In this document: piece by piece, positions 3,127 through 56,294 of the stretch
Position numbering within the stretch: position 1 is the stretch's first letter
Layout of the letters: the number at the start of each line of letters is the position of its first letter
Source of the DNA: a virus
Length of the DNA stretch: 64,000 nt
Direction: 5' to 3' (one strand)
IMG/VR virus record: IMGVR_UViG_3300045988_082442
Location: 32,001 to 96,000 of that record
Position numbers and translations under genes: made by a program
Notes under the pieces: generated by a model
The model's input: only the letters and a program-made list of their open reading frames with translations
Database searches by the model: none
What the model was told of the DNA's origin: nothing

Positions 3127-3531
3127 ATGTTAAATATAGAATTAGATTTTGAAGTTGCAAATACAGAAATCTGTCAAGAACTAACTCTTATGAAATTGGA
3201 ACTTCTAAAAGATTATGATATAAATTATAGACCAGGATACAGAGTTGTATTGGAACATAATCTACAAAGTGCTAGAGATTTTGGACTTAAAGAATATAAA
3301 ACTAGAAAGAGAGAAGTGGAATTCTATGATAACTTAGAGAAAGCAATAAACTATTTGAAAGAAAAAGCAATAGACTATCAACTTAAAGCAGATGAAGAAA
3401 AAGCAAAACTTACAGATGAATACGATGCACCTATAAGAGAATATTGGTGTTACACTGCAGCTTATAGAGCAATGCAAGTGCTAATGAGACAGATAACAGA
3501 GGGGGATACTTATGTTATTAGAAACTGGTAA
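3127..3531 (+). CDS. hypothetical protein
   Basis: ORF with a GGAGGTG RBS. No motif recognised. Confidence 0.6.
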   Translation: MLNIELDFEVANTEICQELTLMKLELLKDYDINYRPGYRVVLEHNLQSARDFGLKEYKTRKREVEFYDNLEKAINYLKEKAIDYQLKADEEKAKLTDEYDAPIREYWCYTAAYRAMQVLMRQITEGDTYVIRNW

Positions 3532-6922: not shown

Positions 6923-7575
6923 CTATTTCACAAATTCAGATACTTCATTTTTATAGAAGTCATAATTTATTGAATCTTTATGGTCAAGATATTCATTTAC
7001 AAATGCACTAATTAAATCTGCTAATCTAGTAAAATCTTCTTCTTTAAAACCTTTTGTAGTCATTGCAGGTGTTCCAATTCTAACACCAGAAGATTTTAAA
7101 GGTGGAAGCTCGTCATTAGGAATTTGATTTTTATTAAGAGTAATATTTATCTTATCAAGCTCAGTTTCTAAATCTTTACCTGTCATCTTCTTATTTGTAC
7201 TTGAATAAATATCTAGAACAAACATGTGATTTTGAGTTCCATTAGAGATTATCTTATAACCTAATCTTATAAATTCTTTTGCAAAAGCATCAGCATTTAA
7301 TATAACTTGTTTTGCATACTCTTTAAATTCAGGTTGTAATGCTTCCTCAAAACAAATACCTTTACCAGCAATAATATGTTCTAGTGGTCCTCCTTGTATT
7401 CCGTGGGAACACAGCAGAGTTTATTTTCTTTGTTAAATCTTCATCATTCCAAAGAATGATACCACCTCTTGGTCCTCTTAAAGTTTTATGTGTGGTAGAT
7501 GTAACAACATCAGCCCAACCAATAGGAGATGGGTGAACACCACCAGCAACTAAACCAGCAACATGTGCCATATCA
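6923..7575 (-). CDS. glyA: serine hydroxymethyltransferase, exon 2 (reading frame broken by a 1-nt insertion near 7403)
   Basis: Translation reads [34 protein letters not shown]. After skipping one C at 7403 it continues [28 protein letters not shown]. These are hallmark SHMT motifs. Confidence 0.8.
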
Positions 7576-8431
7576 CGATTTGTTATCTTTATGTTTCCAT
7601 AAAGTCCAGACTATACCATTAACTTTTATATTTCCAAATAAAACCTGAATAAGATTTATATTCATTAGTGCAATTTCTATAAATTCCGTCTATAGCAACT
7701 CCTGTAATTTTTGATGCTTCTTTTACACTTGGGAATGTTGCTATTAAATTTTGATTCATATCATATTGTTCTGTTATCTTTCCGTGTGTTCTTTGTGCTG
7801 CCTTTCTAACCCCATCTGCTAATCCTGTGTTGTATGCGTGTTGAGTATTATAGCCAGGAGTACACCATTCGAGATTAGTATATTTATTATTTCTTTTATT
7901 ACCGTCCTTATGATTTACTTGTGTGTTCTTATTAGGGTTCTTATTTTCTATAAATAAACTTGCAACCAATGTATGTATATATATTTGTTCAAATTTTCCC
8001 AAAAATCTAAATGTTGCAAGTGTATAGTCATTTGACTTAATATTAGAATAATCATAAATCTTTTCAGCCGAATGTCTCACTACTTTTTTACCTTTTCTTT
8101 CATAAGTAGTTTCTCTTGCCAAACTTTTTACTCTCCCATAATTACTAACTTCATATAACCCTTCCCAGTTAGGAACTGCTTTCCAAATTTCCAAATCTTA
8201 TTCACCTTCTTTCCATATAATAAGTTACTCCTTGGTAGTCGTTGAGAGCTTACCATGCCATAATGGTTTAGGTCTATCTCTGCTGATTGTCCAATCTTAA
8301 ATATTTTCAGGTGTTATTAAAATTTCTAATAATAACTACTAATTTAAGCTCTAAGGAGTTTCCAGCATATTCGGAGTTCAATAATATATTTCTATATTAA
8401 GGGGCTGCTTGCTTAGGCACAAAGCAAATTA
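7576..8431 (-). mobile_element. group I intron carrying an HNH homing endonuclease gene, inserted in glyA
   Basis: The SHMT frame breaks after ..VYMV and resumes at DMAHVAG. The insert follows a U and ends in G. Core-like P/Q/R/S elements are present, with GACUA/UAGUC P7 pairing. Confidence 0.8.
7619..8194 (-). CDS. HNH homing endonuclease (NUMOD4-type N-terminus)
   Basis: TTG start. Contains WKAVPNWEGLYEVSNYGRVKS (NUMOD4-like) and HKDGNKRNNKYTNLEWCTP (HNH), plus a C-terminal helix-turn-helix-like SKITGV module. Confidence 0.85.
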   Translation of the reverse strand: MEIWKAVPNWEGLYEVSNYGRVKSLARETTYERKGKKVVRHSAEKIYDYSNIKSNDYTLATFRFLGKFEQIYIHTLVASLFIENKNPNKNTQVNHKDGNKRNNKYTNLEWCTPGYNTQHAYNTGLADGVRKAAQRTHGKITEQYDMNQNLIATFPSVKEASKITGVAIDGIYRNCTNEYKSYSGFIWKYKS

Positions 8432-9018
8432 ACCATATATACAGGTCTATCTCCAGTTTTATTATAATAATCTTCTATTATTCTGGCTATTCTTTCATAA
8501 TCTATAATTTGTGAATAAGAACTTGCACCAACTAAAATCATTTTAGGGTTATATTGATATAATTTGTTTTCTATATCTTCATAATCAATAATACCATTTT
8601 CTGTAACACCATAGGAAACTATATTATAATCTTGTCCACTAAATGACATTTTATGTCCGTGTGTTAGATGTCCTCCAGCACCTAAATCCATACCTAAAAC
8701 TGTATCTCCATTATTTAATAATGCTCTGTAAACAGCTTGATTTGCAGAAGAACCACAATGTGGCTGAACATTAGCAAATTTGCAACCAAACAATTTACAT
8801 ACATCATCTATTGCTTTTTGCTCTATCATATCTATATATTTACAACCACCATAATATCTTTTATTAGGATAACCCTCTGCATATTTATTTGTTAGAATAG
8901 AACCACAAGCTGCTTTAACCCTATCACTACAAAAGTTTTCACTTGCTATCAATTCTATATTCTTATTTTGTCTGCCTTGTTCCATTTTAATTATATCTTC
9001 ATAAGAAGCTTCTATCAT
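8432..9018 (-). CDS. glyA: serine hydroxymethyltransferase, exon 1
   Basis: Contains [33 protein letters not shown], the canonical SHMT N-terminal motifs. Has an AAGGAGG RBS. Confidence 0.88.
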
Positions 9019-9649: not shown

Positions 9650-12340
9650 ATGGCTGATGCTTATGGTGGATTTGTTTTTGGTCATACAATTATAAGTGAC
9701 TCGTGTGAGGTTTCACATGACTTTTGGGGGCAAGGTACTAAAACAGCTTTTGGTAACCTAAGTATTACAGTATTTGCATGGAGAGAAAATAAGTTTAATG
9801 ATAAAACACTACATTGGTGTATATATAGTTCAAGCAGGAGCCCCTTAAATACTGGTTATGGTAAATTATTAGTAGGTTCTAGAGATAGTATGCTATCTGA
9901 AAATTATTATTTAAGAGCAATGTCTATGCAACTTTCTATAAATGGAACATATATAGTTAATGGAAAACCTACTTGGTCTGATGGTTCATATAAAATGCCA
10001 TATTTTGCTGCCAAAACCCTTGTTACAGGTAATGCCTCTGGTAATGTAGCAACACCAGCTGGTGCATTAACAGAAGAAAATAAAGACAGATTACCAAATG
10101 GAGAGACATCATGGAGATTATTAGAAAAAGAATTTACAAGCAGGCTATATTTTGGTTTCCAGGTTTCTGACCATGGTATTAACTTTCAGGATGTACGAAA
10201 CTGGACAGCAAATAAAACAAGACAGAACATGACTTTCAAATACCCACCATATATGCCAGTTCCTAGTAAAAATACTGATAGTTTCCCATCTACACCTAGC
10301 AACGGAAGTATGGATATAAGTGATGGTTCGACTAAACTTACAAACTGGTGGGCATATAAAATTACTAAAGCTTCCAATAATAAGAATGTATTTAACTGGA
10401 ATCCTTCAACATCTACTGGGGAATATGGTCTTGGAATAACTACAGACGTCATAATAAATGGAAATACATATAATGGTACTGGTTCTAGTTCAAAAGATTA
10501 TACACATAGTACAATAGCAAGTTCATATTCTGGTTATGTAAAAAGATATTATACAGATATGACAGGTATTTATACTATAAGTTCGTCATCAACTGCATAC
10601 ACTTATTCAAAGCCATCTCTTTCTGGTATAGCTTTGAGTAAATCTACTTTAAGTCCTAGAAGTGGTAGTAGTTTAAGAGTTACACTTAATGGAATGAATA
10701 ATAGAACTTGGGGTGTTGAAAATCATTTCGACACAAAGATTTGGAGTAATTGTAATGGTAGTAGTGGAAGCCCATACACAAACGAAAGAACTACTTCAAA
10801 CTACAAAGATTATGGGCAAGGTGATATAAGGGCATTATTCCCAGATACATCAGCTTCAAATGGTGTTGTAAATGGTACTATTTATACATTAAGACGTAAT
10901 ATGGGTGTTAAAGGTGGAAACCCTGGAAATGGAACACAGATATATGTAACAGGTGTAAAGCAAGCAAATGTAAAGATACAATATACACCAAAAGAAAAAA
11001 TAAATGTAGATGATGAGCCAAATGGTAACGATAATCATAGTGGATTAGCATACTATAAATGTGAAAATGGAGTACAAGGAAATAAGATAGCTGCAGCAAC
11101 TACTTGGGAATTATTAAATAATTATGATATTTCTAATATGACTGGTATAAGGGTTAATGTGCAATACCCTAAAACTGATGGTTCTGGTGTTATTAGTGGG
11201 TATAGAGTTAGATTGTATTCTGCAGTAGATGGTTCACCTAAATCAGATACAATGTATTATGAGAATCATTTTAACACTTCTGATTATAACTTTACATTTA
11301 CAATATTTTATAGTGAGCTAAGAAGAGGTGTTAGTGGTAATATTATAAAGATAACACCATATTATACAGCTTCTAATGGTGCTAAATGGTACGGACCAGA
11401 AGTAAGTAAAAGATTTGTTGATATTGCTTGGAGATTAAATAAACCAGTTATAGACTGTCCATTAAATGATACTACTTGGCATAATCACAAATATAGAATA
11501 CTATTTAGATTACCAATAGATAAAGATACACAATATAATGGAAATACAAACGATATAGAGAATTATTACGGAAGTGGAAATTATAGATACCAAAATATAT
11601 GTATTAAAATAAATGGTATTGATACATATTTTGATGATAAAACATTCTATAATGCTCATAATGCTTGGAACAGTCCTATATCAATATCAAATGCAAATCT
11701 AACTTATAGAAGAACAATTATTGTAAACCCATCTTTATTACCAAATTATAAAGATGAGGCATCTTATTCAATTCAAATAAGAGTTAGAAAAGCATACGGA
11801 CAAAATTCAAACTGTGATGGATGGAGTGATTGGTCAGATACTATATTTGTTAGAAGAAAAACTGTATCTAATGATGTAGTAAAAAGACATGAATATATTA
11901 TGGCTTCCCATTATAAAACAGTTCAAGATGCTTTTAATAATAGTCTTGCTTGTTATTCTAAAACAGCTTCTGATAATAAGAACTTTGTAATAAAGGAAAG
12001 TTTTGATAGAGTAAGGGGAGATAACATAAATGGACCACATTTAAGTCCACCAACAAATACACCATTAAGAACAATAAGGGAATATGTAAGTGAATTTAAT
12101 GACTTACATCAACTAAAGAATAAAATCAATAGTTATGCATCATTTGACACTGACCAAGATAGAAGTTTAGTTAAACTAGATAGTAAAAATAATCTATTGG
12201 CTAATTTTACACCTAGCCAAGAGTTTATTACAGCTGCCAAAGACCAAAATGGTGCAACAGAATGTGATAACATAAATACAATACTAAAAGGTAGAAATTA
12301 TATGAAATATATGTGTGATGAGTTAAATCATCTTTATTAG
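9650..12340 (+). CDS. large Asn/Ser/Thr/Gly/Tyr-rich protein (possible beta-rich structural or adhesin-like protein)
   Basis: 896-aa ORF with a strong AAGGAGG RBS and its own terminator. Only its composition suggests a fibre or Ig-like structural protein; no catalytic motif was seen. Confidence 0.75.
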   Translation: MADAYGGFVFGHTIISDSCEVSHDFWGQGTKTAFGNLSITVFAWRENKFNDKTLHWCIYSSSRSPLNTGYGKLLVGSRDSMLSENYYLRAMSMQLSINGTYIVNGKPTWSDGSYKMPYFAAKTLVTGNASGNVATPAGALTEENKDRLPNGETSWRLLEKEFTSRLYFGFQVSDHGINFQDVRNWTANKTRQNMTFKYPPYMPVPSKNTDSFPSTPSNGSMDISDGSTKLTNWWAYKITKASNNKNVFNWNPSTSTGEYGLGITTDVIINGNTYNGTGSSSKDYTHSTIASSYSGYVKRYYTDMTGIYTISSSSTAYTYSKPSLSGIALSKSTLSPRSGSSLRVTLNGMNNRTWGVENHFDTKIWSNCNGSSGSPYTNERTTSNYKDYGQGDIRALFPDTSASNGVVNGTIYTLRRNMGVKGGNPGNGTQIYVTGVKQANVKIQYTPKEKINVDDEPNGNDNHSGLAYYKCENGVQGNKIAAATTWELLNNYDISNMTGIRVNVQYPKTDGSGVISGYRVRLYSAVDGSPKSDTMYYENHFNTSDYNFTFTIFYSELRRGVSGNIIKITPYYTASNGAKWYGPEVSKRFVDIAWRLNKPVIDCPLNDTTWHNHKYRILFRLPIDKDTQYNGNTNDIENYYGSGNYRYQNICIKINGIDTYFDDKTFYNAHNAWNSPISISNANLTYRRTIIVNPSLLPNYKDEASYSIQIRVRKAYGQNSNCDGWSDWSDTIFVRRKTVSNDVVKRHEYIMASHYKTVQDAFNNSLACYSKTASDNKNFVIKESFDRVRGDNINGPHLSPPTNTPLRTIREYVSEFNDLHQLKNKINSYASFDTDQDRSLVKLDSKNNLLANFTPSQEFITAAKDQNGATECDNINTILKGRNYMKYMCDELNHLY

Positions 12341-17976: not shown

Positions 17977-20259
17977 ATGGAAAATGAAGAGCTAAATAAA
18001 ATATTAGAACAATATAAAACTGATTTAACAACTCATAATTTAGACGAAGAATCTCAATTAGAGGAAGTATTGAAATCAAGCTGTAGCTTATCAACAAAGA
18101 GTATTTTTGCTCTCAAGGTATTAATAAAAAAAATTCCCAATGGGGAATTAAGACATCAACAATTAGAGCTGATACATAGAATGAGTAATGTTATAGAAAC
18201 AGAAGATGATGGATTACTTCAAGCTGGAACTGGTGTTGGTAAAAGTATATCTTATTTAATACCTGCCATTATTAGTGGGAAGAAATGTTTTGTAACAACT
18301 TCTACAAAACAACTAACATCACAATTAACAGATAAAGACTTACCCCTATTAAAAGAGTATCTATTCCCAGATTTACAATATTCTGGTTTACAAAGCTTAT
18401 CTAATTATATATGTATTAAGAAGTATTTAGATATGTTTGAGGAAATTCAAGAAAACCCAGGTTTATATGAAAAAACAAGACCAGATGATTTAAAATCAGT
18501 AATGATAATAAAGCCTTACTATGAGAAATACTTATTAGGTAATATAAAACCTGTTGATTTTACTTTAGAAAGTACAGGTTGTGAATGTGAGAGTGCTCAA
18601 TGTTCTGGAGCTGGTTGTATTAGAGGTTGTAAATTCAAAAATAAATCTATCTGTCCTGTATATAGGTTATGTCAACAAATAATGGCTAGTGATGTAGTTG
18701 TTACTAATCATGCTTATGTTAGTAAAATGCTTGTTGGTGCAAGTAAAGATAAAGCAAAAGAATTAGGTTTATTAAAAGGTAGACCACTTTGGATATGTGA
18801 TGAAGCACATGATTTAGAGGGATATTTAGAAAATGCTTTCTCAACCAAATTAGAAGCAGGTGTTTTAAAATATGTTTATATTCCTAAATTGAAGAAGTAT
18901 TTAGAAACAATGGTAATGCAAGAAACTTTTAATAATACATTTAAAGAATATGATACTAAATTAAGGGAATCAAATATACCTGTTGATGATGAGTGTAGAT
19001 ACCACAGTTACGAACAATTAGCAAATGATGTAAGGTCAATTGGTTTAGTAATAGGTAGAATACTGAAGGTAATGGATAGATATAGATTTGATGCTGAGAA
19101 TGAAATTGAAAGTAAGACTAGCGTTGAAAGAGAATTTGAGTTTGATGATTCTGATAATGAAGAGATAAGCAAATGTATTGATATACTATTAAAGATACAA
19201 ATAAGATTAGAAACACTTACATCAGTAAATGTTAAGTATGTTCCAACTATTAGAAATATTGTATCTGATTTAGCAAATGCACTAGAGATATTTTATAAGT
19301 CAAGTGGTAACAAAGAATCTTATGTAACATACTATGATTATATGGCTCCAAGACATGATAATGATGACCCATTTAGTATATCTTCTACATTTTTACAATC
19401 TGGGGAAGCATTACAAGCAGCACTTGGTTGTTTAGATTTAGAGAAATCAGAATTAGTAACTGTAAATAAGAATAAAATAAATATGATAGGTGTCTCAGCT
19501 ACATTATGTGTTGGTGGAAGCTTTAGGGATACAGCAGAAAAATTAGGAATGACAAAATTAAAAGATATGCACTGTCAATGCACAGATGTAGGAACAGTGT
19601 TTGACTACCAAAAACAAGGTTTGATGTATATACCACAGGGAATACCAGATGTAAAGAAGAATAGAACAGAACATTTTGATTACTTTAAAAAGTCAATAAA
19701 AGAACTTATAAAGATATCACATGGTGGAGCATTGATACTTTGTACTACTATAAAAGAAACAACAGAAACATATCATTACTTATTAGAAGAATTTGGGGGT
19801 ACTTATACAGTTTTAAGTGCTGAAGATAAAAGATGGAAAACCAAAAATGATTTAGTAAAAGCATTCAGGGATGATGAGAATAGTATTCTAATTGGTACAA
19901 GAGGATTTTTCCAAGGTTTAGATGTGCAAGGTGATTCATTAAGACTATTATGTTTAAATAAACTTCCTTTTGGAAACCCAGGAGTAGTTAGTAAGAGAAA
20001 AGGAGAAATTGCTAAGTCAAAAGGTTTAGATGATTTCAGAATAACAGCAATAGTTCCAACTACAATGATGTTATTACAAGCTGTTGGCAGACTTATTAGA
20101 CATACATCAGACAAAGGAGTTATAGCATTATATGATAATAGACTTTATACTGGTTCCTATTGGATAAGTCCATTAACAATGTCTTTACCACCATTTAGAA
20201 CTACTACAGATTTAAAGGATGTTGAAGAATTTTTTACTGAAAACAAAAGTGAAGAATAG
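17977..20259 (+). CDS. DinG/XPD(Rad3)-like superfamily 2 helicase with a Cys-rich (Fe-S-type) insert
   Basis: Contains AGTGVGKS (Walker A), VVVTNHAY and DEAHDLE (motif II). A Cys cluster CECESAQCSGAGCIRGC..CPVYRLC lies between motifs Ia and II. Confidence 0.8.
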   Translation: MENEELNKILEQYKTDLTTHNLDEESQLEEVLKSSCSLSTKSIFALKVLIKKIPNGELRHQQLELIHRMSNVIETEDDGLLQAGTGVGKSISYLIPAIISGKKCFVTTSTKQLTSQLTDKDLPLLKEYLFPDLQYSGLQSLSNYICIKKYLDMFEEIQENPGLYEKTRPDDLKSVMIIKPYYEKYLLGNIKPVDFTLESTGCECESAQCSGAGCIRGCKFKNKSICPVYRLCQQIMASDVVVTNHAYVSKMLVGASKDKAKELGLLKGRPLWICDEAHDLEGYLENAFSTKLEAGVLKYVYIPKLKKYLETMVMQETFNNTFKEYDTKLRESNIPVDDECRYHSYEQLANDVRSIGLVIGRILKVMDRYRFDAENEIESKTSVEREFEFDDSDNEEISKCIDILLKIQIRLETLTSVNVKYVPTIRNIVSDLANALEIFYKSSGNKESYVTYYDYMAPRHDNDDPFSISSTFLQSGEALQAALGCLDLEKSELVTVNKNKINMIGVSATLCVGGSFRDTAEKLGMTKLKDMHCQCTDVGTVFDYQKQGLMYIPQGIPDVKKNRTEHFDYFKKSIKELIKISHGGALILCTTIKETTETYHYLLEEFGGTYTVLSAEDKRWKTKNDLVKAFRDDENSILIGTRGFFQGLDVQGDSLRLLCLNKLPFGNPGVVSKRKGEIAKSKGLDDFRITAIVPTTMMLLQAVGRLIRHTSDKGVIALYDNRLYTGSYWISPLTMSLPPFRTTTDLKDVEEFFTENKSEE

Positions 20260-31862: not shown

Positions 31863-32080
31863 TGAAATTGATAGATGGTGATAATACCTACAATGTTTTA
31901 ACTTTAAATTTAGATGAGGGAGATGTATTGGTAGTTGATTTTAAGGATAATCAGCCAAATGCAGAATCCCTATCTAAATATAGGGAATATTTGAAAGATA
32001 TATTTCCTAATAATAGAATATTATTTATATCAAATGGTATAGAGTTAGGAATCATAAAGGGAGGTAGTAATATTGAGTAA
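31862..32080 (+). CDS. hypothetical protein
   Basis: ORF lying between spoVG and groEL. Confidence 0.55.
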   Translation: MKLIDGDNTYNVLTLNLDEGDVLVVDFKDNQPNAESLSKYREYLKDIFPNNRILFISNGIELGIIKGGSNIE

Positions 32081-33707
32081 AAATATAAAATATGGAGAAG
32101 AAGCACAAAGTTCTGTTGTAGATGGTATAAATGCTGTTGCAGATATTGTTAAAACTACAATAGGACCAAAAGGCAGAAATGTTCTAATCAGAGAGAAAGG
32201 AACTACACCAGTAATAACTAACGATGGTGTTACAATAGCAAAATCAATACAATTAAAAGATAATACAGAAGACGCAGGTGCATCTTTAATAATATCAGCT
32301 GCACAAAAAACAAATGATATAGCAGGAGATGGAACAACTACAACTACTTTATTGTCATCTGAAATTATAAATAGAGGATTTGAAGCTATTGATAAATATA
32401 ACTTAAATCCAGTGCAACTACAAAAAGGTTTAATATCTTTATCTAATAAAATTAGTGATATGTTATTAGATAATGCTATTGAAGTGAAAGATGATGATAG
32501 CATAAAAAGAGTTGCTTCAATATCAAGTGGTAGTGATGTTACAGGTGAGCTAATTGCTAATGCTTTCAAAGATGCAGGTACTTATGGAACAGTAATAGTA
32601 GAGGATAGTAAAACAGGAGTAACTGGATTATCAACTGTTATGGGTATGAAATTACCAAATGGTTCAGTATCGCCTTATCTATTAGAAAGAAGTACATTAT
32701 CATCAGAAATAGATGATGTGAGTGTTTTAGTTATGAAAGATAAAATAGATAATGTACCAGATTTAATACCAGTATTAGATTCTTGTAATAGGGAAGGAAG
32801 AAGGCTTTTAATTATATGTGATGATATTGAATTTGAACCATTAAACTTTGTTGTTATGAATAAAGCAAGGGGAGCAATAAATGTAAATATAATTAGATTA
32901 CCAGGATTAAATAATGATTTAAGAAATGCTGTAACAGATGATATTTGCATTGCTACTGGAGCAACATTAGTTAGTAGAGAATCTGGTAGACCATTAAAAG
33001 CATTTACATCAGAATGGTTCGGTGAATTAGAAAGTGCAAAAATAGAATTAGAAGAAACAGTATTAAAATTTAAAGATATAAGTTCTACTGGTGAGAATTT
33101 ATTAGCAGATAGAGAAAATAGAGTAGCTGAATTAGAAACACAAAAAGAAACATTAGGTGTTGGAAAAGATACTACACATTATGATAAGAGAATAGCAAAT
33201 TTAGTTGGTGGAATTTCTGTGATTGAAGTTGGTGGAAATTCAGAAATAGAAATAAAGGATACTAAATTGAGAATTGAAGATGCTTTAAATTCTGTTAAAG
33301 CTGCTATTGAAGAAGGAATTGTAGCAGGTGGTGGTTATAGTTTCCTTGAAATTGTAAAACAATTAGGAAATACTAATATGACAGCAGATGATGCTATTGT
33401 TGCAGATATTCTTACAGAATCATTAAAATCAGTTACTAGACAGATAGCTGAAAATGCTGGAATGAATGGTGATGAAGTAGTTAAGACTTGTATTGAAAAA
33501 GGTAAGGGCTTAAATGCAATGACTGGAGAATATACAAATTTAATAGAATCTGGTGTTATAAATGCTGTAAAAGTAGATAGATATTGTGTACTAAATGCTG
33601 TAAGTGTTGCTGGTACAGTTCTAACAATGGGTGGGGCAATTATAGAGGAGAATGAAAAAGACCAAAATCTTCTACAACTTATAAACCCAGGAGTACCAGT
33701 AATATAA
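32073..33707 (+). CDS. groEL: GroEL-like chaperonin (Cpn60)
   Basis: The TTG start has a GGGAGG RBS. Contains MSKNIKYGEEA, TIGPKGRNV, AGDGTTTTT and VAGGG. The 544-aa size is typical. Confidence 0.92.
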   Translation: MSKNIKYGEEAQSSVVDGINAVADIVKTTIGPKGRNVLIREKGTTPVITNDGVTIAKSIQLKDNTEDAGASLIISAAQKTNDIAGDGTTTTTLLSSEIINRGFEAIDKYNLNPVQLQKGLISLSNKISDMLLDNAIEVKDDDSIKRVASISSGSDVTGELIANAFKDAGTYGTVIVEDSKTGVTGLSTVMGMKLPNGSVSPYLLERSTLSSEIDDVSVLVMKDKIDNVPDLIPVLDSCNREGRRLLIICDDIEFEPLNFVVMNKARGAINVNIIRLPGLNNDLRNAVTDDICIATGATLVSRESGRPLKAFTSEWFGELESAKIELEETVLKFKDISSTGENLLADRENRVAELETQKETLGVGKDTTHYDKRIANLVGGISVIEVGGNSEIEIKDTKLRIEDALNSVKAAIEEGIVAGGGYSFLEIVKQLGNTNMTADDAIVADILTESLKSVTRQIAENAGMNGDEVVKTCIEKGKGLNAMTGEYTNLIESGVINAVKVDRYCVLNAVSVAGTVLTMGGAIIEENEKDQNLLQLINPGVPVI

Positions 33708-41480: not shown

Positions 41481-42737
41481 ATGATAGATAGAATAGATGT
41501 GGAGTATGCACTACTGTTAAGTGTAGTTGAGAATAAGAATTTTGAAATTTTACTTAAAAATGATATAACTGAGGACTATTTTAGTAATACTGGTAAATTG
41601 ATATACCATCATATTGAAGATTATCTTAATAAATATTCAGAGTACATGCATGTAAATAATATACTTAAAGAGTTTGATATAGATTTAGATTATTATTCTA
41701 GCTTGAAGCTATTAGGTAACACACAATCTTTTATGGATACATTAAAACAACAACATGCATCAGATGTAATAGTTGATAAGTTGAGTGCTCTGAATGCAAG
41801 TTCAGGGTTGATATATACACAACCAGTAGAATTTCTGAAGTCTTTTGATGCAACTAATGATAGTTTAAAGCAACTTTTGGTAGAAAGGAAATCAGTAAAT
41901 TTATTAGATAACTTAGATAAGATTTTACAGTTAGATAGAAATAATGTTATAAAGACAGGATTTAAAGAACTAGATGATAAACTAATTGGTTGGAACAAAG
42001 GTGAGGAGCTTATAATTCTTATGGGTAGACCAGGACAGGGTAAATCATTTTTAGGTTTAAAGTTTTCTTTGGCAGCAGCAATACAGAAGTATAGAGTTGG
42101 TATTTATTCTGGAGAGATGTCAGAGGAACAAGTACAAAAAAGACTTATTATGCTAAATAAACAAGGTAGAACAATGACAGATGCAGAGTCAATAAGTGAT
42201 ATGAGAGCAAAAGATTTAAAACTTACGCTACTAACACAAAAAGAGTTACAAGGAAGAGCAACAGTAAAAGATTTAGAGTCAATGATATTAAAAGATGAGT
42301 TAGATTTTTTATTTGTAGACCAATTATCATTAATGGATGATTACCATTCAAGGGTATATGATACAAGAACCAGATTTGCAAATATATCAGCAGATTTGTT
42401 TTCATTGTCAATAAAATATTCAATACCAATAGTTTTAGCAGTACAAAGTAACAGAGATGGTGGTCTACAGAAAGATGCACCACAATTAGAGAATATAGCA
42501 GAATCAGATGTTGTAGGACAAAATGCAACAAGGGTTATTGGTATGAGAAGGGAAGCAAATATAACTACAATGAATATCTCAAAAAATAGATATGGTGATG
42601 ATAAGTTTATGCAAAAATATGATACAGATTTTGAGTTAGGTAAGTTTACACCAATAATGACAGCAGAGTCACCACTTGCACAAGCACAGGTACAATCACA
42701 GGCAAGAAAAAGAACATTAGGTTCTAGATATTTCTAA
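41481..42737 (+). CDS. dnaB: DnaB-type replicative helicase
   Basis: Contains GRPGQGKSFLGL (Walker A) and FLFVDQLSLM (Walker B) in a RecA-like C-domain, with a DnaB-like N-domain. Confidence 0.88.
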   Translation: MIDRIDVEYALLLSVVENKNFEILLKNDITEDYFSNTGKLIYHHIEDYLNKYSEYMHVNNILKEFDIDLDYYSSLKLLGNTQSFMDTLKQQHASDVIVDKLSALNASSGLIYTQPVEFLKSFDATNDSLKQLLVERKSVNLLDNLDKILQLDRNNVIKTGFKELDDKLIGWNKGEELIILMGRPGQGKSFLGLKFSLAAAIQKYRVGIYSGEMSEEQVQKRLIMLNKQGRTMTDAESISDMRAKDLKLTLLTQKELQGRATVKDLESMILKDELDFLFVDQLSLMDDYHSRVYDTRTRFANISADLFSLSIKYSIPIVLAVQSNRDGGLQKDAPQLENIAESDVVGQNATRVIGMRREANITTMNISKNRYGDDKFMQKYDTDFELGKFTPIMTAESPLAQAQVQSQARKRTLGSRYF

Positions 42738-42799
42738 TAAACATTTATAAGGATAATTTTACAATCCTTGCAAGAAGTTGCGAACTGTGTATTTTGATA

Positions 42800-43033
42800 T
42801 TTTTATAGCTATATAGGATAGCACAGATGTGAAAGAATAAGAATTTGCTTTATTAAGTACATGGTGTTTTATAGCTATATAGAATAACACAGGTGTAAAA
42901 GTTATACAATTATAAAACACGGTCATTTTGTGTTTTATAGCTATATAGAATAACACAGGTGTAAAAGAAGGTATATGATACAAGAACTAGATTTTCAGTT
43001 TTATAGCTATATAGAATAACACAGGTGTAAAAG
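42800..43033. CRISPR. mini-CRISPR array: four 36-nt repeats (one degenerate) and three 30-nt spacers
   Basis: GTTTTATAGCTATATAGAATAACACAGGTGTAAAAG occurs at 42866, 42932 and 42998. A copy with 5 mismatches is at 42800. The spacers at 42836-42865, 42902-42931 and 42968-42997 are all exactly 30 nt. Confidence 0.8.
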
Positions 43034-43081
43034 GTTGATATCCAACTAAATTTTTACAGTTTTAGATATGGGAGTAAGTAT

Positions 43082-44107
43082 ATGTATAATGTTGATTTTT
43101 TATTACAGTTAAAAGAGTATTTATATTCAAAAACAGGAAAAGTATATTTCAATAATATAAGAGATGGTAAAGAAGATATATTATGTACTTGTCCTATTCA
43201 TAAAGGTGGACAGGAAAGACACCCTAGTTGTGGTTTTTCTAAAATAGATAAAGAAAATATTAGTGCTGGATGGTTTCATTGCTTTAATTGTGGATTTACT
43301 GGTAATACATATACAGTTTTAAAAGAACTATTAGGTGAAAAGTTTGATAAAGAAGAAGCAAATAAAGTATTAGGAATTGAAGATTTTGAAGAAGATTATA
43401 GATTAAATAATAACCCAATAATCTTTACTATTCCACCAAAGGAACCAGTTAAATATGTAAGTAGAAAAGAATTAGAACAATACAGATACTATTCAGATTA
43501 TTTAAAATACAGGAATATCTCAATGAATACAGCAAATAAATTTGATATTGGAATGGATATAAGAACAAATGAAATAACATTTCCAATTAGAGATTATACA
43601 GGTAGGGCTTTAGCAGTAGGTAGGAGAAGTATTGCAGGAAAGAGATATGAGTACCCTTTGGGGTTTACAAAGCCATTGTATGGTGTTTATGAGTTACCAG
43701 TAATAATGAAAAATCAATATGTATGGGTTGTTGAAGGACCATTTAATCTGTGGAGTTTATATGAATATAAAGAAATAGGTGTAGCATTGTTAGGTACAGG
43801 AACACAAAGACAATTAGAACAGTTACTGACATTAGATTGTAAAGGTTTTATGTTGGCATTAGATGGGGATAAAGCAGGTAGAAGAGGTATAACAAAAATA
43901 GCTAAATTCTTACAAAGACATGGAAGAGAAGTTAGAGTGTACTGTGTACCAGATAATGAGGATATAAATAGTATGCCATCAAACTTATTTCCACAAATGG
44001 CAATAATGACATTTAGAGAATGGAGTAAGATGATAGCAAGAAGATTTAAAGATGAAGATAATTCTGGTAACAAAGATATACAACCAGAATTAGAGGATAT
44101 GAATTAG
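43082..44107 (+). CDS. dnaG: DnaG-type DNA primase
   Basis: Contains a zinc finger (CPIHKGGQERHPSCGF..CFNCG) and the TOPRIM motifs VVEGPFN and LDGDKAGRRG. Confidence 0.88.
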   Translation: MYNVDFLLQLKEYLYSKTGKVYFNNIRDGKEDILCTCPIHKGGQERHPSCGFSKIDKENISAGWFHCFNCGFTGNTYTVLKELLGEKFDKEEANKVLGIEDFEEDYRLNNNPIIFTIPPKEPVKYVSRKELEQYRYYSDYLKYRNISMNTANKFDIGMDIRTNEITFPIRDYTGRALAVGRRSIAGKRYEYPLGFTKPLYGVYELPVIMKNQYVWVVEGPFNLWSLYEYKEIGVALLGTGTQRQLEQLLTLDCKGFMLALDGDKAGRRGITKIAKFLQRHGREVRVYCVPDNEDINSMPSNLFPQMAIMTFREWSKMIARRFKDEDNSGNKDIQPELEDMN

Positions 44108-44912: not shown

Positions 44913-46232
44913 ATGGCAGATTTATTTGATTTAACAATACCAAATAAAAAGCAAGCTGCATCATCTGTTAGAAAGACAAAGAGAACTGGAGGTATGGGAT
45001 TAGGTGAAAGGGTTATGGAAGCAAGAAGAGCAGTTGAAACCTCACTTGCTGGTTATAAAGATAAAGTTAGAACTATCATAACAATAGATGACTTAATCTC
45101 ATACTTTGAAAATGCAGGAGATTTGATAGCAATAGATACTGAAACAATGGGGCTTAACTATTTTAGTGATTATATAGTTGGAATATCAATGAGTAATGGT
45201 GGGGAAGGTATTTATATACCATTAAACCATTCAAATTATGTATATGGAACTAGAGTAGAAGGTCAGTTAGATGTAAAAGATGTTGCAGAAGTATTTAAAA
45301 AGTATATGAATAATATTAAGTGGATATACCATAACTCAAAGTTCGACCTTAATGTCTTAAAAACAGCATTTGGATTTGATATGCCAATGCACTATTGGGA
45401 TACTTTGATATTTGCACATTTATATAGGTCAAATGAGGAACATGGTTTGAAATACTTATATAATAAATATATTGCATTAGAGGACGAAGGTGTAAATAAA
45501 TTTGACAAATTGTTTAATGGATTGACCTTTGACCTAATTCCAATTGATGTAGCAACAGTATATGCTGGAAAGGATGCTATAATGACACATAAGTTATTTG
45601 AATGGCAATACAGCATACTAGATACAGAATTTGCAGAATCAAAAGACTTATTTTTGAATATAGAGAACCCATTATCCTATTATGTAGCAGAGATGCAAAG
45701 AACTGGTGTAGAATATGACAAGGAAGCATCTGATAAGTTAAGTGCAGAATTATTTAAAGAACAAGCAGAGGCTGAAAAGGTTGTATATAATGAGATAAAT
45801 AAATATAAATCACAAATAGATGAATACAAAATAACACACCCAAAGAATCCATTGGAAGACCCAATAAATCTAAAAAGTGAAAAACAATTAAGTACACTAT
45901 TTTATGATATTATAGGTTACAAAACAAAGGCAGGTAAAGGAACTGGTAGAGAAATATTACAAGAAATAAATGATGATTTGTGTAAGTCATTACTGAAATT
46001 AAGAACACTAACAAAATTGATAGATGCATTTATAGTAAGTTTGCCAGGGTTTATAGAACCAACAGATGGAAGAATACATACAAGTTTAAATCAGGATGGC
46101 ACAGAAACAGGAAGATTTAGTTCAAGTAAACCAAACCTACAACAAATTCCTGCAAGAAATCCAATAGGAAAGAAAATCAGACAATTATTTAAAGCATCCC
46201 CAGGTTATGTAATGATGTCTTCAGATTTCAGT
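44913..46232 (+). CDS. polA: family-A DNA polymerase, exon 1 (3'-5' exonuclease and start of pol domain)
   Basis: Contains IAIDTET (Exo I) and YHNSKFDL. The exon ends with ..MMSSDFS, the first half of motif A (DxSQxExR). Confidence 0.9.
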
Positions 46233-46547
46233 TAAATGATGGCTGCCTAGTAGGGTGACCTGCTAGTGAATAAACCACCTAATTCGGTGAAACCTTAGCA
46301 AGTAAAGTTGAAGGTAATACCGAGCAAAATATTATTTTATCTTGTGGATTTATAAATAATATTGTGTGTAGAGACTATCAAAATCATAGTATAAAAGAAA
46401 TATTTATATGAATAAGAGAGTAGAGTAAGACTTAAGCAAGTTTGAAATGGTGGTTATCTTATAAAGGTTAAAACAATATAAGATAAAGAGCTAGTCCGAC
46501 ACTTACAGAAATGTAAGAAATAATTTAGCGAATTATTAAACAGTGTG
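46233..46547 (+). mobile_element. ORF-less group I intron splitting polA motif A
   Basis: Exon 1 ends in U and the intron ends in G. Core elements: P UAAUUCGGUGAAAC (46281), Q AAUACCGAGC (46317), R GUAGAGACUAUCA (46369), S AAGAGCUAGUCCG (46487). Confidence 0.85.
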
Positions 46548-47489
46548 CAACAAGAACCAAGGGTACTTTGTCATTTATGCAATGATGAGCATTTAAGAAA
46601 AGCCTATGCAGATGGAAAAGACATATATGCTGAGATGGCTTCTAAAGCATTTCATGAAACCTATGAGAATTGTAGAGAGTTTTATGTAGATGAAAATGGA
46701 AACAAGATATTAGGTGATGATGGGGAACCAATAGAAAATGTAGAGGGGCATAAAAGAAGGTCAAGAATAAAGGGTGTTTTGTTAGGGCTATTATATGGAG
46801 AGTCAACAGCTACAATGGCTGAAGGAGCAGGAATATCAACAGATGAGGCACAACAAATAATTGATGACTTCTTTAAGGCTTACCCAAGAATACAAGAGTA
46901 TATCAATACACAACAGAAGATTGCAAAAGAAAGAGGATATACACTAACTCTCTGGGGTAGGAAAAGAATAATACCAAATATACAGAGAGAAGAATATGAG
47001 TTTTCATATAATGAAAATAGAAGAGTAGACTTTAATCCTATGTTCTGGAGTGATGATGTTGCAAGTACAGAAGTTAAAGATGAAATCAAACAACAATACA
47101 TCCAGAAACTAGAAAAAGCAAACTTTAATACAAAAAGAAAAATAATAGAACAAGCCAGATTAGCAGGTATTGATATTAGAGATAATAAAAAATATATTGC
47201 AGAGGCAAATAGAAAAGTTGTAAATAGTATAGTTCAAGGCACTGCAGCTGACATGAGCAAGTTAGCAATGTTAAAGATTGCAACTAATAAAGAACTAAGG
47301 GATTTAGGGTTTAGACAGTTATTCCCAGTACATGATGAAATAATAGGGGAATGTCCTATGGAAAACAAGGATAGATGTGCAGAGCTTATGAGTAAAATGA
47401 TGATAGAAGCAGGAGCTACAAAAGTTAGTGTACCTATGAAATGTGACGTTGCCAAATTTATAAACTGGGAAGGCGAAGGTATAAAATAG
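46548..47489 (+). CDS. polA: family-A DNA polymerase, exon 2
   Basis: Begins QQEPRVLCHL (the rest of motif A). Also contains RRSRIKGVLLGLLYG (motif B) and PVHDEI (motif C). Confidence 0.9.
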   Translation, partial: QQEPRVLCHLCNDEHLRKAYADGKDIYAEMASKAFHETYENCREFYVDENGNKILGDDGEPIENVEGHKRRSRIKGVLLGLLYGESTATMAEGAGISTDEAQQIIDDFFKAYPRIQEYINTQQKIAKERGYTLTLWGRKRIIPNIQREEYEFSYNENRRVDFNPMFWSDDVASTEVKDEIKQQYIQKLEKANFNTKRKIIEQARLAGIDIRDNKKYIAEANRKVVNSIVQGTAADMSKLAMLKIATNKELRDLGFRQLFPVHDEIIGECPMENKDRCAELMSKMMIEAGATKVSVPMKCDVAKFINWEGEGIK

Positions 47490-54891: not shown

Positions 54892-55140
54892 ATGCAACTA
54901 AAAGAATTTAAAAATATTATAGACACTATGTTTAGTAAATATGGTGATATTGATATTATGATAGATTTAGCCACAAATAATGATGTAGATGATACTATAT
55001 ATAAAGATATTGAAACTGGGAATATTTATACAGAGCAAGTTTTAGATATTTCAGAAGTGAAAGATAATACAGGTGATAACGTCGAGGGTATATGTATATC
55101 TAACTATAAAATGAAGAATAATAATTGGGGAAGGGAGTAG
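54892..55140 (+). CDS. hypothetical protein
   Basis: I chose the ATG at 54892 after GAGGAG. Confidence 0.5.
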   Translation: MQLKEFKNIIDTMFSKYGDIDIMIDLATNNDVDDTIYKDIETGNIYTEQVLDISEVKDNTGDNVEGICISNYKMKNNNWGRE

Positions 55141-55145
55141 ATAAG

Positions 55146-56294
55146 ATGTATAAACCAAAAAGAGGGTTATGGACTTCTGAGGATGTAAGTCCACAACATC
55201 CAGACAGGGCAATGGATTTTGTTTCTGACTATATAATGGATAAGTTTGTTAAGGAAGACCCAAAATCACATGTTGCAATAGATGGTACTAATAAAAATGA
55301 ATGGGTTGTTTTAACTGGAGAAATTAGTTCAAGTGCAAATATTGATATTGAGGAAGCAGTTAAAGAGGCATATAAAGAAATAGGTTACACTTTTGAACCT
55401 AGAGTTATAAATTTGATATATAAGCAATCACCAGATATTGCACAGGGAATTGAGAAAGATGATGAAGAAATAGGTGCAGGTGACCAAGGTATAATGATAG
55501 GTTATGCAAATATAGAATCAGATGAGTATTTACCATTGGCACTATACTTGTCAAAGAGAATAATTAGTGAATTATATAAGGCAAAAGACATATATCCATT
55601 TATGAGAGGTGATATGAAATCACAGGTTACAATAGATTATGACAAGGAAGAGCCAGAAGTAAATACTATTGTGGTTGCTTGTCAACATACAGAAGATGCT
55701 AATATAGAGATGTTGAAAGATACTATAAAGGGTATTGTAAATCAAGTATTAATGAATGCAAATGTAAAGGTATCCAATAATTTAATATGGCATATAAATG
55801 GAACTGGAAAATTTGTAATAGGTGGACCAGAAGGTGATAGTGGAGAAGTAGGAAGAAAACTTATTTGTGATTCTTATGGTGGATATGCAGCTATTGGTGG
55901 TGGTAATACACATGGTAAAGATGCCACAAAAGTAGACGCTTCAGCTGCTTATGCTACAAGATGGTTGGCTAAGAATATTGTTGCTTCTGGATTATCAGAT
56001 GAGTGTGAGGTACAATTAGGCTATGTAATAGGTGTTGCAGAGCCAGTATCTATAAATGTTGATTTGAAAGGACAACAGAAAACATCTGTAACAGAAGAAG
56101 ATATAGAAAGGTTTATAGAAGAGAATATATCTTTATCAGTAAAAGGAATTATAGATAGATTTGATTTAAGAAGACCTTTAAGACATATTTGGTCAAGACA
56201 AGGATACACTGGTAACTCATTTAGTACAGTAACACCACCTTGGGAGGAATTAGATTTAATAGATGATTTGAGGTTAATTTCTTATTATGGGTAA
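55146..56294 (+). CDS. metK: S-adenosylmethionine synthetase
   Basis: Contains TSEDVSPQHPDR, GAGDQGIMIGYA and GGGNTHGKD..KVD.SAAY, the MetK hallmark motifs. I chose the start at 55146 because it has a GGGAG RBS. Confidence 0.9.
   Translation: MYKPKRGLWTSEDVSPQHPDRAMDFVSDYIMDKFVKEDPKSHVAIDGTNKNEWVVLTGEISSSANIDIEEAVKEAYKEIGYTFEPRVINLIYKQSPDIAQGIEKDDEEIGAGDQGIMIGYANIESDEYLPLALYLSKRIISELYKAKDIYPFMRGDMKSQVTIDYDKEEPEVNTIVVACQHTEDANIEMLKDTIKGIVNQVLMNANVKVSNNLIWHINGTGKFVIGGPEGDSGEVGRKLICDSYGGYAAIGGGNTHGKDATKVDASAAYATRWLAKNIVASGLSDECEVQLGYVIGVAEPVSINVDLKGQQKTSVTEEDIERFIEENISLSVKGIIDRFDLRRPLRHIWSRQGYTGNSFSTVTPPWEELDLIDDLRLISYYG

Follow-up and report, generated by a model that had tools for sequence, protein, structure and literature searches.

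Orphan CRISPR-like mini-arrays in a human-gut jumbo phage include a spacer apparently drawn from the dnaB gene of a relative

Introduction

What does a short CRISPR array do in a phage that has no CRISPR-associated (cas) gene beside it, and at what is it aimed? The question is raised by a stretch of viral DNA of 64,000 nucleotides (nt), positions 32,001 to 96,000 of IMG/VR record IMGVR_UViG_3300045988_082442, which we analyzed whole and call the window. In it, four repeats and three spacers (array A) lie between a dnaB-like helicase gene and a primase gene, and the third spacer closely resembles part of that same dnaB gene. Virus-carried arrays without cas genes are thought to arm a virus against its kin. 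The window, with 28% GC, lies inside a 213,644-bp contig from a human-gut metagenome (ena:ERZ28663717, scaffold_17), and the carrier is a jumbo phage of roughly 214 kb with no near relatives among GenBank phages or in IMG/VR. We put at roughly 0.55 the probability that array A and a second mini-array of the phage guide a trans-acting TnpB-like or type V-like nuclease against the dnaB genes of related phages, and that spacer 3 came recently from a co-circulating relative.

Results

Array A lies between the dnaB and primase genes

The region between the two replication genes (42738-43081) holds four 36-nt direct repeats with a 66-nt period and three unique 30-nt spacers, arranged as follows:

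41481-42737, + strand: dnaB-like replicative helicase gene, 418 amino acids (Pfam DnaB_C, 6.3e-25)
42738-42799, + strand: leader of array A, with a promoter-like TAAACA-16-TACAAT (42738-42765), a hairpin (42768-42783) and the junction ...TATTTTGATA at the repeat
42800-42835, + strand: repeat R1, 31/36 to the consensus, 3′ half CACAGATGTGAAA
42836-42865, + strand: spacer 1, position 3 polymorphic between strains (T/G)
42866-42901, + strand: repeat R2, GTTTTATAGCTATATAGAATAACACAGGTGTAAAAG
42902-42931, + strand: spacer 2
42932-42967, + strand: repeat R3
42968-42997, + strand: spacer 3, AAGGTATATGATACAAGAACTAGATTTTCA, apparently from a relative's dnaB; only in the lineage of the window's contig
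42998-43033, + strand: repeat R4
43034-43081, + strand: trailing flank up to the primase start
43082-44107, + strand: DnaG-type primase gene (Toprim_2, 6.4e-12)

Repeats R2 to R4 are mutually identical, and spacer 3 is bordered on both sides by perfect 36-nt repeats. A protein identical to the DnaB of the window is encoded on five metagenome contigs. In relatives at ~70% DnaB identity, the gap between dnaB and the primase gene is 10-20 nt long and the whole of 42738-43081, array included, is missing.

Spacer 3 agrees with the carrier's own dnaB sequence AGGGTATATGATACAAGAACCAGATTTGCA (42351-42380, + strand) at 27 of 30 positions, the mismatches falling at spacer positions 2, 21, and 28. This is the sole other match to spacer 3 in the window at three or fewer mismatches. 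Position 42351 is the first codon position of the open reading frame (ORF) 41481-42737 and the match is in frame, the gene reading RVYDTRTRFA and the spacer KVYDTRTRFS. A first-pass annotation of the window had reported this same-strand match with its three differences, their coding effect (R to K, A to S, and one synonymous change), and a negligible likelihood of chance. We reproduced the match exactly and agree on the peptides, and a second match to spacer 3 arose in none of 100 dinucleotide-preserving shuffles. The same annotation saw no convincing match in the window for spacers 1 and 2, and indeed neither finds anything better than 9-10 mismatches elsewhere in it. The alternative that the 30-mer is a recombination scar is ruled out, since the duplication of dnaB stops at the 30-mer and no dnaB sequence outside it is repeated.

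Spacer 3 is matched more closely by dnaB alleles of related phages

We gathered the alleles at the protospacer site from all fetched relatives and aligned 10 DnaB homologues. The conspecific strain L037 matches spacer 3 at 28 of 30 positions, with mismatches at 9 and 28. So does the P0009 lineage (L004-L007; one Logan and three IMG/VR contigs; 70% DnaB identity), with mismatches at 3 and 15 and a peptide that is exactly KVYDTRTRFS. The other sampled lineages have 4-5 mismatches. Each base of spacer 3 is present in some sampled allele, and all three differences from the carrier are states found in relatives. These alleles bear out in substance the earlier proposal of a relative's dnaB and speak against a copy of the carrier's own gene; the predicted donor is an unsampled dnaB allele of the same gene pool. 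The exact hits that had been expected in dnaB orthologues did not appear: no 30/30 protospacer was found in IMG/VR, in JGI metagenomes (where dnaB flanking sequence was added to the pattern), among GenBank phages, or in the fetched relatives, and a codon-degenerate pattern search retrieved the 28/30 allele alone.

The carrier's target site has features of its own:

42348-42353, + strand: codons S290 and R291, at the protospacer's 5′ edge; only the carrier lineage has them, and relatives read P or another residue, then K
42351-42380, + strand: the carrier's own protospacer allele, 27/30 to spacer 3; 5′ flank CATTCA as against C(A/G)TCCA in the 28/30 alleles
42332-42470, + strand: recombination patch relative to L037, 14 substitutions in ~140 bp, the rest of dnaB being nearly identical

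The S290 and R291 changes sit at -3 and +2 of the protospacer, with the immediate flank TCA in the carrier and CCA in the 28/30 alleles; L037, of the same species, has P-K at these two codons. Because the patch that separates the carrier from L037 covers the protospacer, alleles at this site appear to move by recombination. The substitutions in the patch are mostly synonymous, and it is gene-conversion-like and centered on the protospacer.

Array and target share a strand and are 600 nt apart, and the lineage-unique S290 and R291 at the protospacer edge resemble escape mutations. One might thus suppose that spacer 3 was taken from the carrier's own dnaB, which diverged later to escape it, or that it is an imperfect guide that regulates dnaB. 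We regard such a self-origin as very improbable, given that the dnaB allele is exactly the same in the strains that have no spacer 3 and that the three differences all occur in relatives. Moreover, with a background divergence of 0.09%, the spacer itself would have to have been hit three times within its 30 nt.

Spacer 3 is a recent addition to an inherited array

Same-species contigs (L001/L036, L037, and L039) keep the leader, R1, spacer 1, R2, spacer 2, and R3 and lack spacer 3; single-base variants in spacer 1, spacer 2, or R2 are their only other differences from the window array. Contigs from at least five samples contain the stretch from the leader through R3, and array A is thus real and inherited with the phage. 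Among the strains compared, spacer 3 is confined to the lineage of the window's contig. Upstream of the array, the three-spacer form differs from the two-spacer form L001 at 10 of 11,487 nt (0.09%; the sister genomes compared are L001 and L002), as against 3 of 30 between spacer 3 and the carrier's own site. The array region is a recombination mosaic whose left flank groups with L036 and L039 and whose right flank groups with L037. Because these nearest neighbors on both flanks all have two spacers, a single recent gain of spacer 3 is the simplest history.

A second array shares the leader and sets the polarity

The same phage has another such array, array B (L056 15932-16099), 3.6 kb past the right end of the window, with two 30-nt spacers between three repeats, GTTTTATAGCTATGTAAAATGACACAGATGTGAAAG, that are 31/36 identical to the window repeats. 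Counted with its leader, it occupies L056 15871-16099 (window-equivalent 67569-67797), downstream of an SNF2 helicase gene and with a small ORF on either side. Over the 60 nt upstream of their first repeats, arrays A and B agree at 53 positions. In both, this stretch has a TACAAT -10-like element as well as a hairpin (UUGCAA-GAAG-UUGCGA for array A, UUGCAG-GAAA-CUGCAA for array B). Pairing is preserved where the two hairpins differ, by way of one compensatory A-U/G-C change and a U.G wobble that can pair in + strand RNA only. Because this conserved leader and hairpin lie to the left of both arrays, we infer that the + strand is the likely transcript. An opposite reading, in which the minus strand is read from a leader on the right, had been suggested by the divergent R1 and the terminal position of spacer 3; it was dropped once the left flank proved to be the conserved leader.

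The leader-repeat junctions are TATTTTGATA/TTTTT in array A and AATTTGAT/GTTTT in array B, and the repeats end in AAAG. The repeat has an internal hairpin (positions 2-19), with pairing in 94% of cells over 22 repeats of the family; its 7-14 pair varies as GC (13), UA (7), GU (1), and UG (1).

Spacer 2 has a peculiarity of its own. Its positions 42903-42920 resemble an anti-repeat, being complementary at 15 of 18 positions to the 5′ end of the flanking repeats (42864-42881 and 42930-42947), and its complementarity to the repeats, taken by itself, has P ~0.02 relative to window 30-mers. The segment from spacer 1 through R3 (42836-42967) folds at z = -3.5, with a main stem formed by spacer 2 and the 5′ part of R3. 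A comparable anti-repeat lies immediately upstream of the first repeat in L047, a related array described below; neither the left flank of the window nor spacer 2 shows significant homology to that pre-array segment (P = 0.11 and 0.16).

Related repeats flank TnpB genes in other gut phages

Arrays of this repeat family are absent from IMG/VR and from GenBank phages. The repeat has two open frames, which we translated and used to search a protein collection for false ORFs that span an array. This search, made without reference to TnpB, led to L047, a 12-unit array in a different gut phage contig of 127.7 kb, with a repeat that is 29/36 identical to that of the window and the same in its first 16 nt. 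The L047 array lies directly downstream of, and co-oriented with, a gene for a 419-amino-acid TnpB protein, which scores 234 bits against guided_TnpB, has ISDra2 TnpB as its closest solved relative, and aligns with it at the D/E/D residues and the zinc finger.

We then looked up two further loci purely through homology to the L047 TnpB protein (L060 and L061/L062, at 40% and 38% identity, respectively), and both proved to be flanked by the same repeat family. The L060 repeat is 27/36 identical to that of the window, and its 3′ half is the CACAGATGTGAAA of R1 and of the array B repeats; the L061/L062 repeat is 28/36 identical, and its 3′ 14 nt equal the window consensus. The arrays are always co-oriented with TnpB, the repeats of each of the three loci reading GTTTTA...AAAC along the strand that codes for TnpB. 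Spacer content varies between samples that have identical TnpB genes, and the L047 array is heavily decayed. The first-pass annotation had considered array A as a possible type II array read rightward, which now looks doubtful, as the repeats are 27-29/36 identical to those that flank TnpB genes and 23/36 identical to the type II-A repeat found below.

Divergent TnpB-linked arrays share two conserved 20-mers, each of which starts exactly at the 3′ end of a repeat. This points to a guide that comes after its repeat, the arrangement of TnpB and type V systems, and would place the protospacer-adjacent motif (PAM) and the seed at the protospacer's left end. The carrier would then be protected only by the mismatch at position 2 and perhaps by the flank change at -3. 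As to the earlier idea that mismatches allow self-escape, the carrier site is indeed altered, with three mismatches and a changed 5′ flank, and the placing of the seed in the right-hand third of the spacer is probably wrong. The two conserved units, AACGGCTT[A/G]AAAGTTTGGTA and GATAGTGAATT[G/A]AAAAAGAA, are spacer-like and agree at 19 of 20 positions between arrays. They are located at about 9805-9824 and 9761-9780 of L047 (- strand), at 30-49 of L060, and at 1009-1028 of L062, and the TnpB genes of the arrays that share them are just 38-40% identical.

Targets for spacers 1 and 2, for both array B spacers, and for 19 spacers of the related arrays were absent from IMG/VR, GenBank phages, and the fetched loci, so no PAM could be derived.

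L047 has a candidate scaffold, AATATAGCTATAAAAT, and L062 has a 55-nt scaffold that is present four times; no equivalent of either was found in the window, and Rfam gave no match to CRISPR-DR, trans-activating CRISPR RNA (tracrRNA), or omega RNA. The structured ~55-nt segment of L062 (TTCACCGAGGTTTAATCGGGCAGTGCACAC...GGTGTGAAATTTGG) follows the TnpB stop codon and has three further copies, each of which leads a mini-array (600-658, 760-817, 1490-1549, and 3230-3283 in all). It could be a leader derived from a tracr or omega RNA.

Searches for an effector and a host array

We searched for an effector in the window and the 10 kb on each side of it (84 kb) with Pfam, NCBIfam, and PHROGs on 30 ORFs, with tblastn, and with a TnpB hidden Markov model over all ORFs. 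Three large ORFs of no assigned function were compared with the Protein Data Bank by sequence search and with hhalign. All of these searches were negative for an effector. A DinG-like helicase (17977-20259) was considered as the type IV protein Csf4 and ruled out, as it scores 303 bits as YoaA/DinG and 43 bits as Csf4. None of the best 120 TnpB homologues lies on a contig of 213,644 bp.

A scan of JGI data for host arrays gave coding and tandem repeats only. Scanning GTDB for a double 11-mer returned one type II-A locus, in an Erysipelotrichaceae metagenome-assembled genome (MAG), SUG468, whose repeat is 23/36 identical to that of the phage in either orientation, a shared 11-mer being the search criterion behind the match. 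The two repeats share their first 13-15 nt, and the MAG has 26-28% GC, close to the 28% of the phage. None of the SUG468 spacers matches the phage. The SUG468 locus (L019 1-7403) is complete, with cas9 (1337 amino acids), cas1, cas2, csn2, and at least 22 repeats, GTTTTATAGCTATGTTGTTTCAAATGATTCCAAAAC; its leader ends in GTACGAG.

The same dnaB target could also be attacked by a type II-A Cas9 of the host. Its CRISPR RNA would consist of a spacer and the 5′ part of the downstream repeat, with the PAM on the right (AATAT...), a right-hand seed, and a tracrRNA pairing with GUUUUAUAGCUAU. The 36-nt repeats, the spacers of exactly 30 nt, and the GTTT start of the repeat fit such a system, as do its first 13-15 nt, which are identical to the repeat start at a true cas9-cas1-cas2-csn2 locus from a gut MAG of similar GC. 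The leaders of array B and L047 end in ATTTGAT/GTTT, 6/7 of the group-1 motif ATTTGAG/GTTT (PMC5382924). This geometry would give the carrier a pair of seed mismatches at distances of 3 and 10 nt from the PAM and P0009 a single PAM-distal mismatch in the last 20 nt; R1 would be dispensable, consistent with its divergence. We nonetheless rank Cas9 below a TnpB-like nuclease and think it rather unlikely. The identity to the MAG repeat is only 23/36, in either orientation, with the 11-mer as search criterion; the closest repeats all flank TnpB genes; and no MAG spacer matches the phage. Type II repeats do not usually contain a conserved internal hairpin such as this one, the new spacer sits at the far end from the leader, and outside array A the 84 kb contain no anti-repeat at three or fewer mismatches, so that nothing tracrRNA-like is on hand save the weak case of spacer 2.

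Both arrays may instead be inert passengers, cassettes that arrived with spacer 3 by recombination with the array of another element, with no nuclease to serve and with the dnaB match a fossil of immunity. The empty 84 kb and the want of a host array fit this account, as do the recombination-mosaic flanks, the decayed L047 array, and the four of five spacers without a target. It too strikes us as doubtful, since two arrays keep leaders that are 53/60 identical with structure-preserving changes, R2 to R4 are mutually identical and conserved across strains, spacers turn over on a background of ~0.1% divergence, and array A occupies the gap between two essential genes, a place in which useless sequence would carry a cost.

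A further account makes the arrays decoys in the manner of RNA anti-CRISPRs, the transcripts soaking up a TnpB-like or Cas nuclease of a competitor phage or of the host and the spacers being incidental. The repeat family does belong to nucleases of other gut phages, the arrays are orphan, short, and equipped with their own promoter-like leader, and roles of this kind have been proposed for the effector-less arrays of huge phages (PMC7162821). A decoy, however, needs no recently gained 30-nt spacer from an essential gene of relatives, and the regular 30-nt spacers favor true guide units; we consider this quite improbable.

Genome context

Genes in the window and the 10 kb on either side code for GroEL/GroES, a split PolA, RecA, SbcCD, NrdD, ThyX, MetK, a sigma factor, a baseplate protein, a holin, and a lysin; the window contains no transfer RNA gene and no Rfam hit. 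Individual loci are as follows:

6923-9018, - strand: serine hydroxymethyltransferase gene in fragments 6923-7225 and 8413-9018, broken by an HNH/NUMOD ORF (7619-8194)
17977-20259: DinG/YoaA-type helicase
32073-33707: GroEL, with GroES and SpoVG upstream
44913-47489: family A DNA polymerase gene in two parts, 44913-46235 and 46545-47489, with a 309-nt insert between them
55125-56294: complete MetK S-adenosylmethionine synthetase

At the polymerase split site, L001 has a GIY-YIG endonuclease ORF and further splits, and in L032 and L041 the gene is uninterrupted; the split looks like mobile-intron or homing-endonuclease traffic. Strain L057 has a GIY-YIG ORF at the site in the hydroxymethyltransferase gene. 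Logan contigs of the phage and of four related lineages (L003, L025-L035) start ~60-70 nt upstream of the same gene of 126-127 amino acids, near ~36947, which suggests a repeat or hypervariable junction there that breaks assemblies.

Discussion

In the reading that we favor, the phage holds at least two CRISPR-like mini-arrays with their own leaders and no cas gene nearby, and spacer 3 would have been taken recently from the dnaB allele of a close relative that circulates with it. A nuclease supplied in trans and guided by the array RNA would attack this replication gene in the relative, giving superinfection exclusion or an advantage in interviral competition, and the carrier's own dnaB would be spared through its differences from spacer 3. 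From the linkage of the repeat family, the effector is most likely TnpB-like or type V-like; the + strand would be read from the left leader with each guide placed after its repeat, and the protecting differences would be that at position 2 and perhaps that in the -3 flank (codons R291 and S290).

Several observations weigh against this. Neither a Cas nor a TnpB-like gene turned up in the 84 kb (of 213.6 kb) made up by the window and the 10 kb to its left and right, a scan of 185,579 genomes of GTDB species representatives gave 0 hits to the exact repeat and thus no host array with it there, and a 30/30 protospacer was found nowhere among the databases and relatives searched. Spacers 1 and 2 and both array B spacers, four of the five in the two arrays, have no known targets. 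A left-hand seed leaves the carrier one mismatch in the first 20 nt plus a candidate PAM difference. The argument from S290 and R291 is post hoc, 48 of 418 residues being lineage-unique, which puts chance at roughly 1%. Strains without spacer 3 have the same S290/R291 allele, so this allele either predates the gain of spacer 3 or reflects similar guides elsewhere. Spacer 3 also lies at the leader-distal end of the array, which is not the usual site of Cas1-Cas2 insertion. As that position is the same whether the array is read as TnpB-like or as type II-A, arrival by recombination between arrays rather than by Cas1-Cas2 insertion may apply.

A tentative variant, possible though on the unlikely side, combines two of the systems considered above. 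The arrays would be guide-only cassettes whose spacers are written by host type II-A adaptation and read by a TnpB-type nuclease, a division suggested because the II-A-like leader-repeat junction and the 36/30-nt ruler are kept; S290 and R291 would then be a mark left by an arms race between strains of the species. The nuclease of this joint scheme might come from elsewhere in the genome, from a co-infecting phage, or from the host, and strains might exchange guides and escape patches by recombination.

The closest precedent is in the portogloboviruses SPV1 and SPV2 of Sulfolobales, whose mini-CRISPR arrays act in interviral conflict (Medvedeva et al. 2019, PMC6858448). As there, the arrays have 1-3 spacers, a leader (here with a promoter-like element), and no cas genes nearby, the sequences that come closest to spacer 3 belong to relatives, and the carrier's orthologous locus is point-mutated; the target lies near the array, a genome has more than one array, and spacers turn over between strains. 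The present carrier is, by contrast, a bacterial jumbo phage of the human gut with no host array found, and its closest repeats flank phage TnpB-like genes. The repeats and leaders of SPV1 and SPV2 matched host arrays and their spacers matched at 100%, whereas our best match is 28/30. Huge phages also carry compact CRISPR arrays, often without Cas genes (Al-Shayeb et al. 2020, PMC7162821), and our phage shares with them a genome of >200 kb, a short array, the lack of adaptation and interference genes nearby, and a core gene of another phage as target. It differs in a repeat family not present in IMG/VR or GenBank phages and in population data that show spacer gain and target polymorphism.

The TnpB-linked loci recall TranC, transposon-CRISPR intermediates in which TnpB-like nucleases occur with CRISPR arrays, among them the phage-borne CauTranC9 (bioRxiv 10.64898/2026.03.27.714800; review, PMC13565253). 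By architecture, L047, L060, and L061/L062 resemble these intermediates: each lacks adaptation genes and has a TnpB-like gene (~420-446 amino acids, catalytic residues intact) next to short arrays whose repeats measure 36 nt, with a structured segment of 55-126 nt in between. The window arrays share the short-array trait (3-20 repeats of 32-38 bp, no adaptation genes) and, unlike TranC, have no adjacent RuvC nuclease in the window or its flanks.

In type II-A systems, the motif ATTTGAG or CTRCGAG precedes the GTTT of the repeat, which ends in AAAC (PMC5382924). Our arrays are similar in their 36-nt repeat, 30-nt spacers, GTTT start, and the 13-15 nt shared with a II-A repeat, and the leader end of array B recalls ATTTGAG; the arrays differ in that no cas9, cas1, cas2, csn2, or tracrRNA was found, the repeats end in AAAG, contain a hairpin, and are only 23/36 identical, and the new spacer is leader-distal. 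Cas-less repeat units borne by a virus are a trait that the arrays share with RNA anti-CRISPRs and with the solitary repeat units of mobile elements, reportedly the subject of work by Camara-Wilpert et al. in 2023 and Faure et al. in 2019. Unlike RNA anti-CRISPRs, the arrays here are full repeat-spacer-repeat units and include a spacer of identifiable and relevant origin.

A virus-borne mini-array aimed at relatives is thus of a known kind, and what is new is the tie of its repeats to phage TnpB-like nucleases. Bacterial cases well documented at population resolution are few, and here spacer gain, a polymorphic target, and a recombination patch over that target are all visible in public metagenomes. 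The finding bears on how TnpB-derived systems without Cas1-Cas2 acquire spacers and on whether guides and nucleases can be carried by different elements, and the three nuclease loci together with the two orphan arrays make both questions testable.

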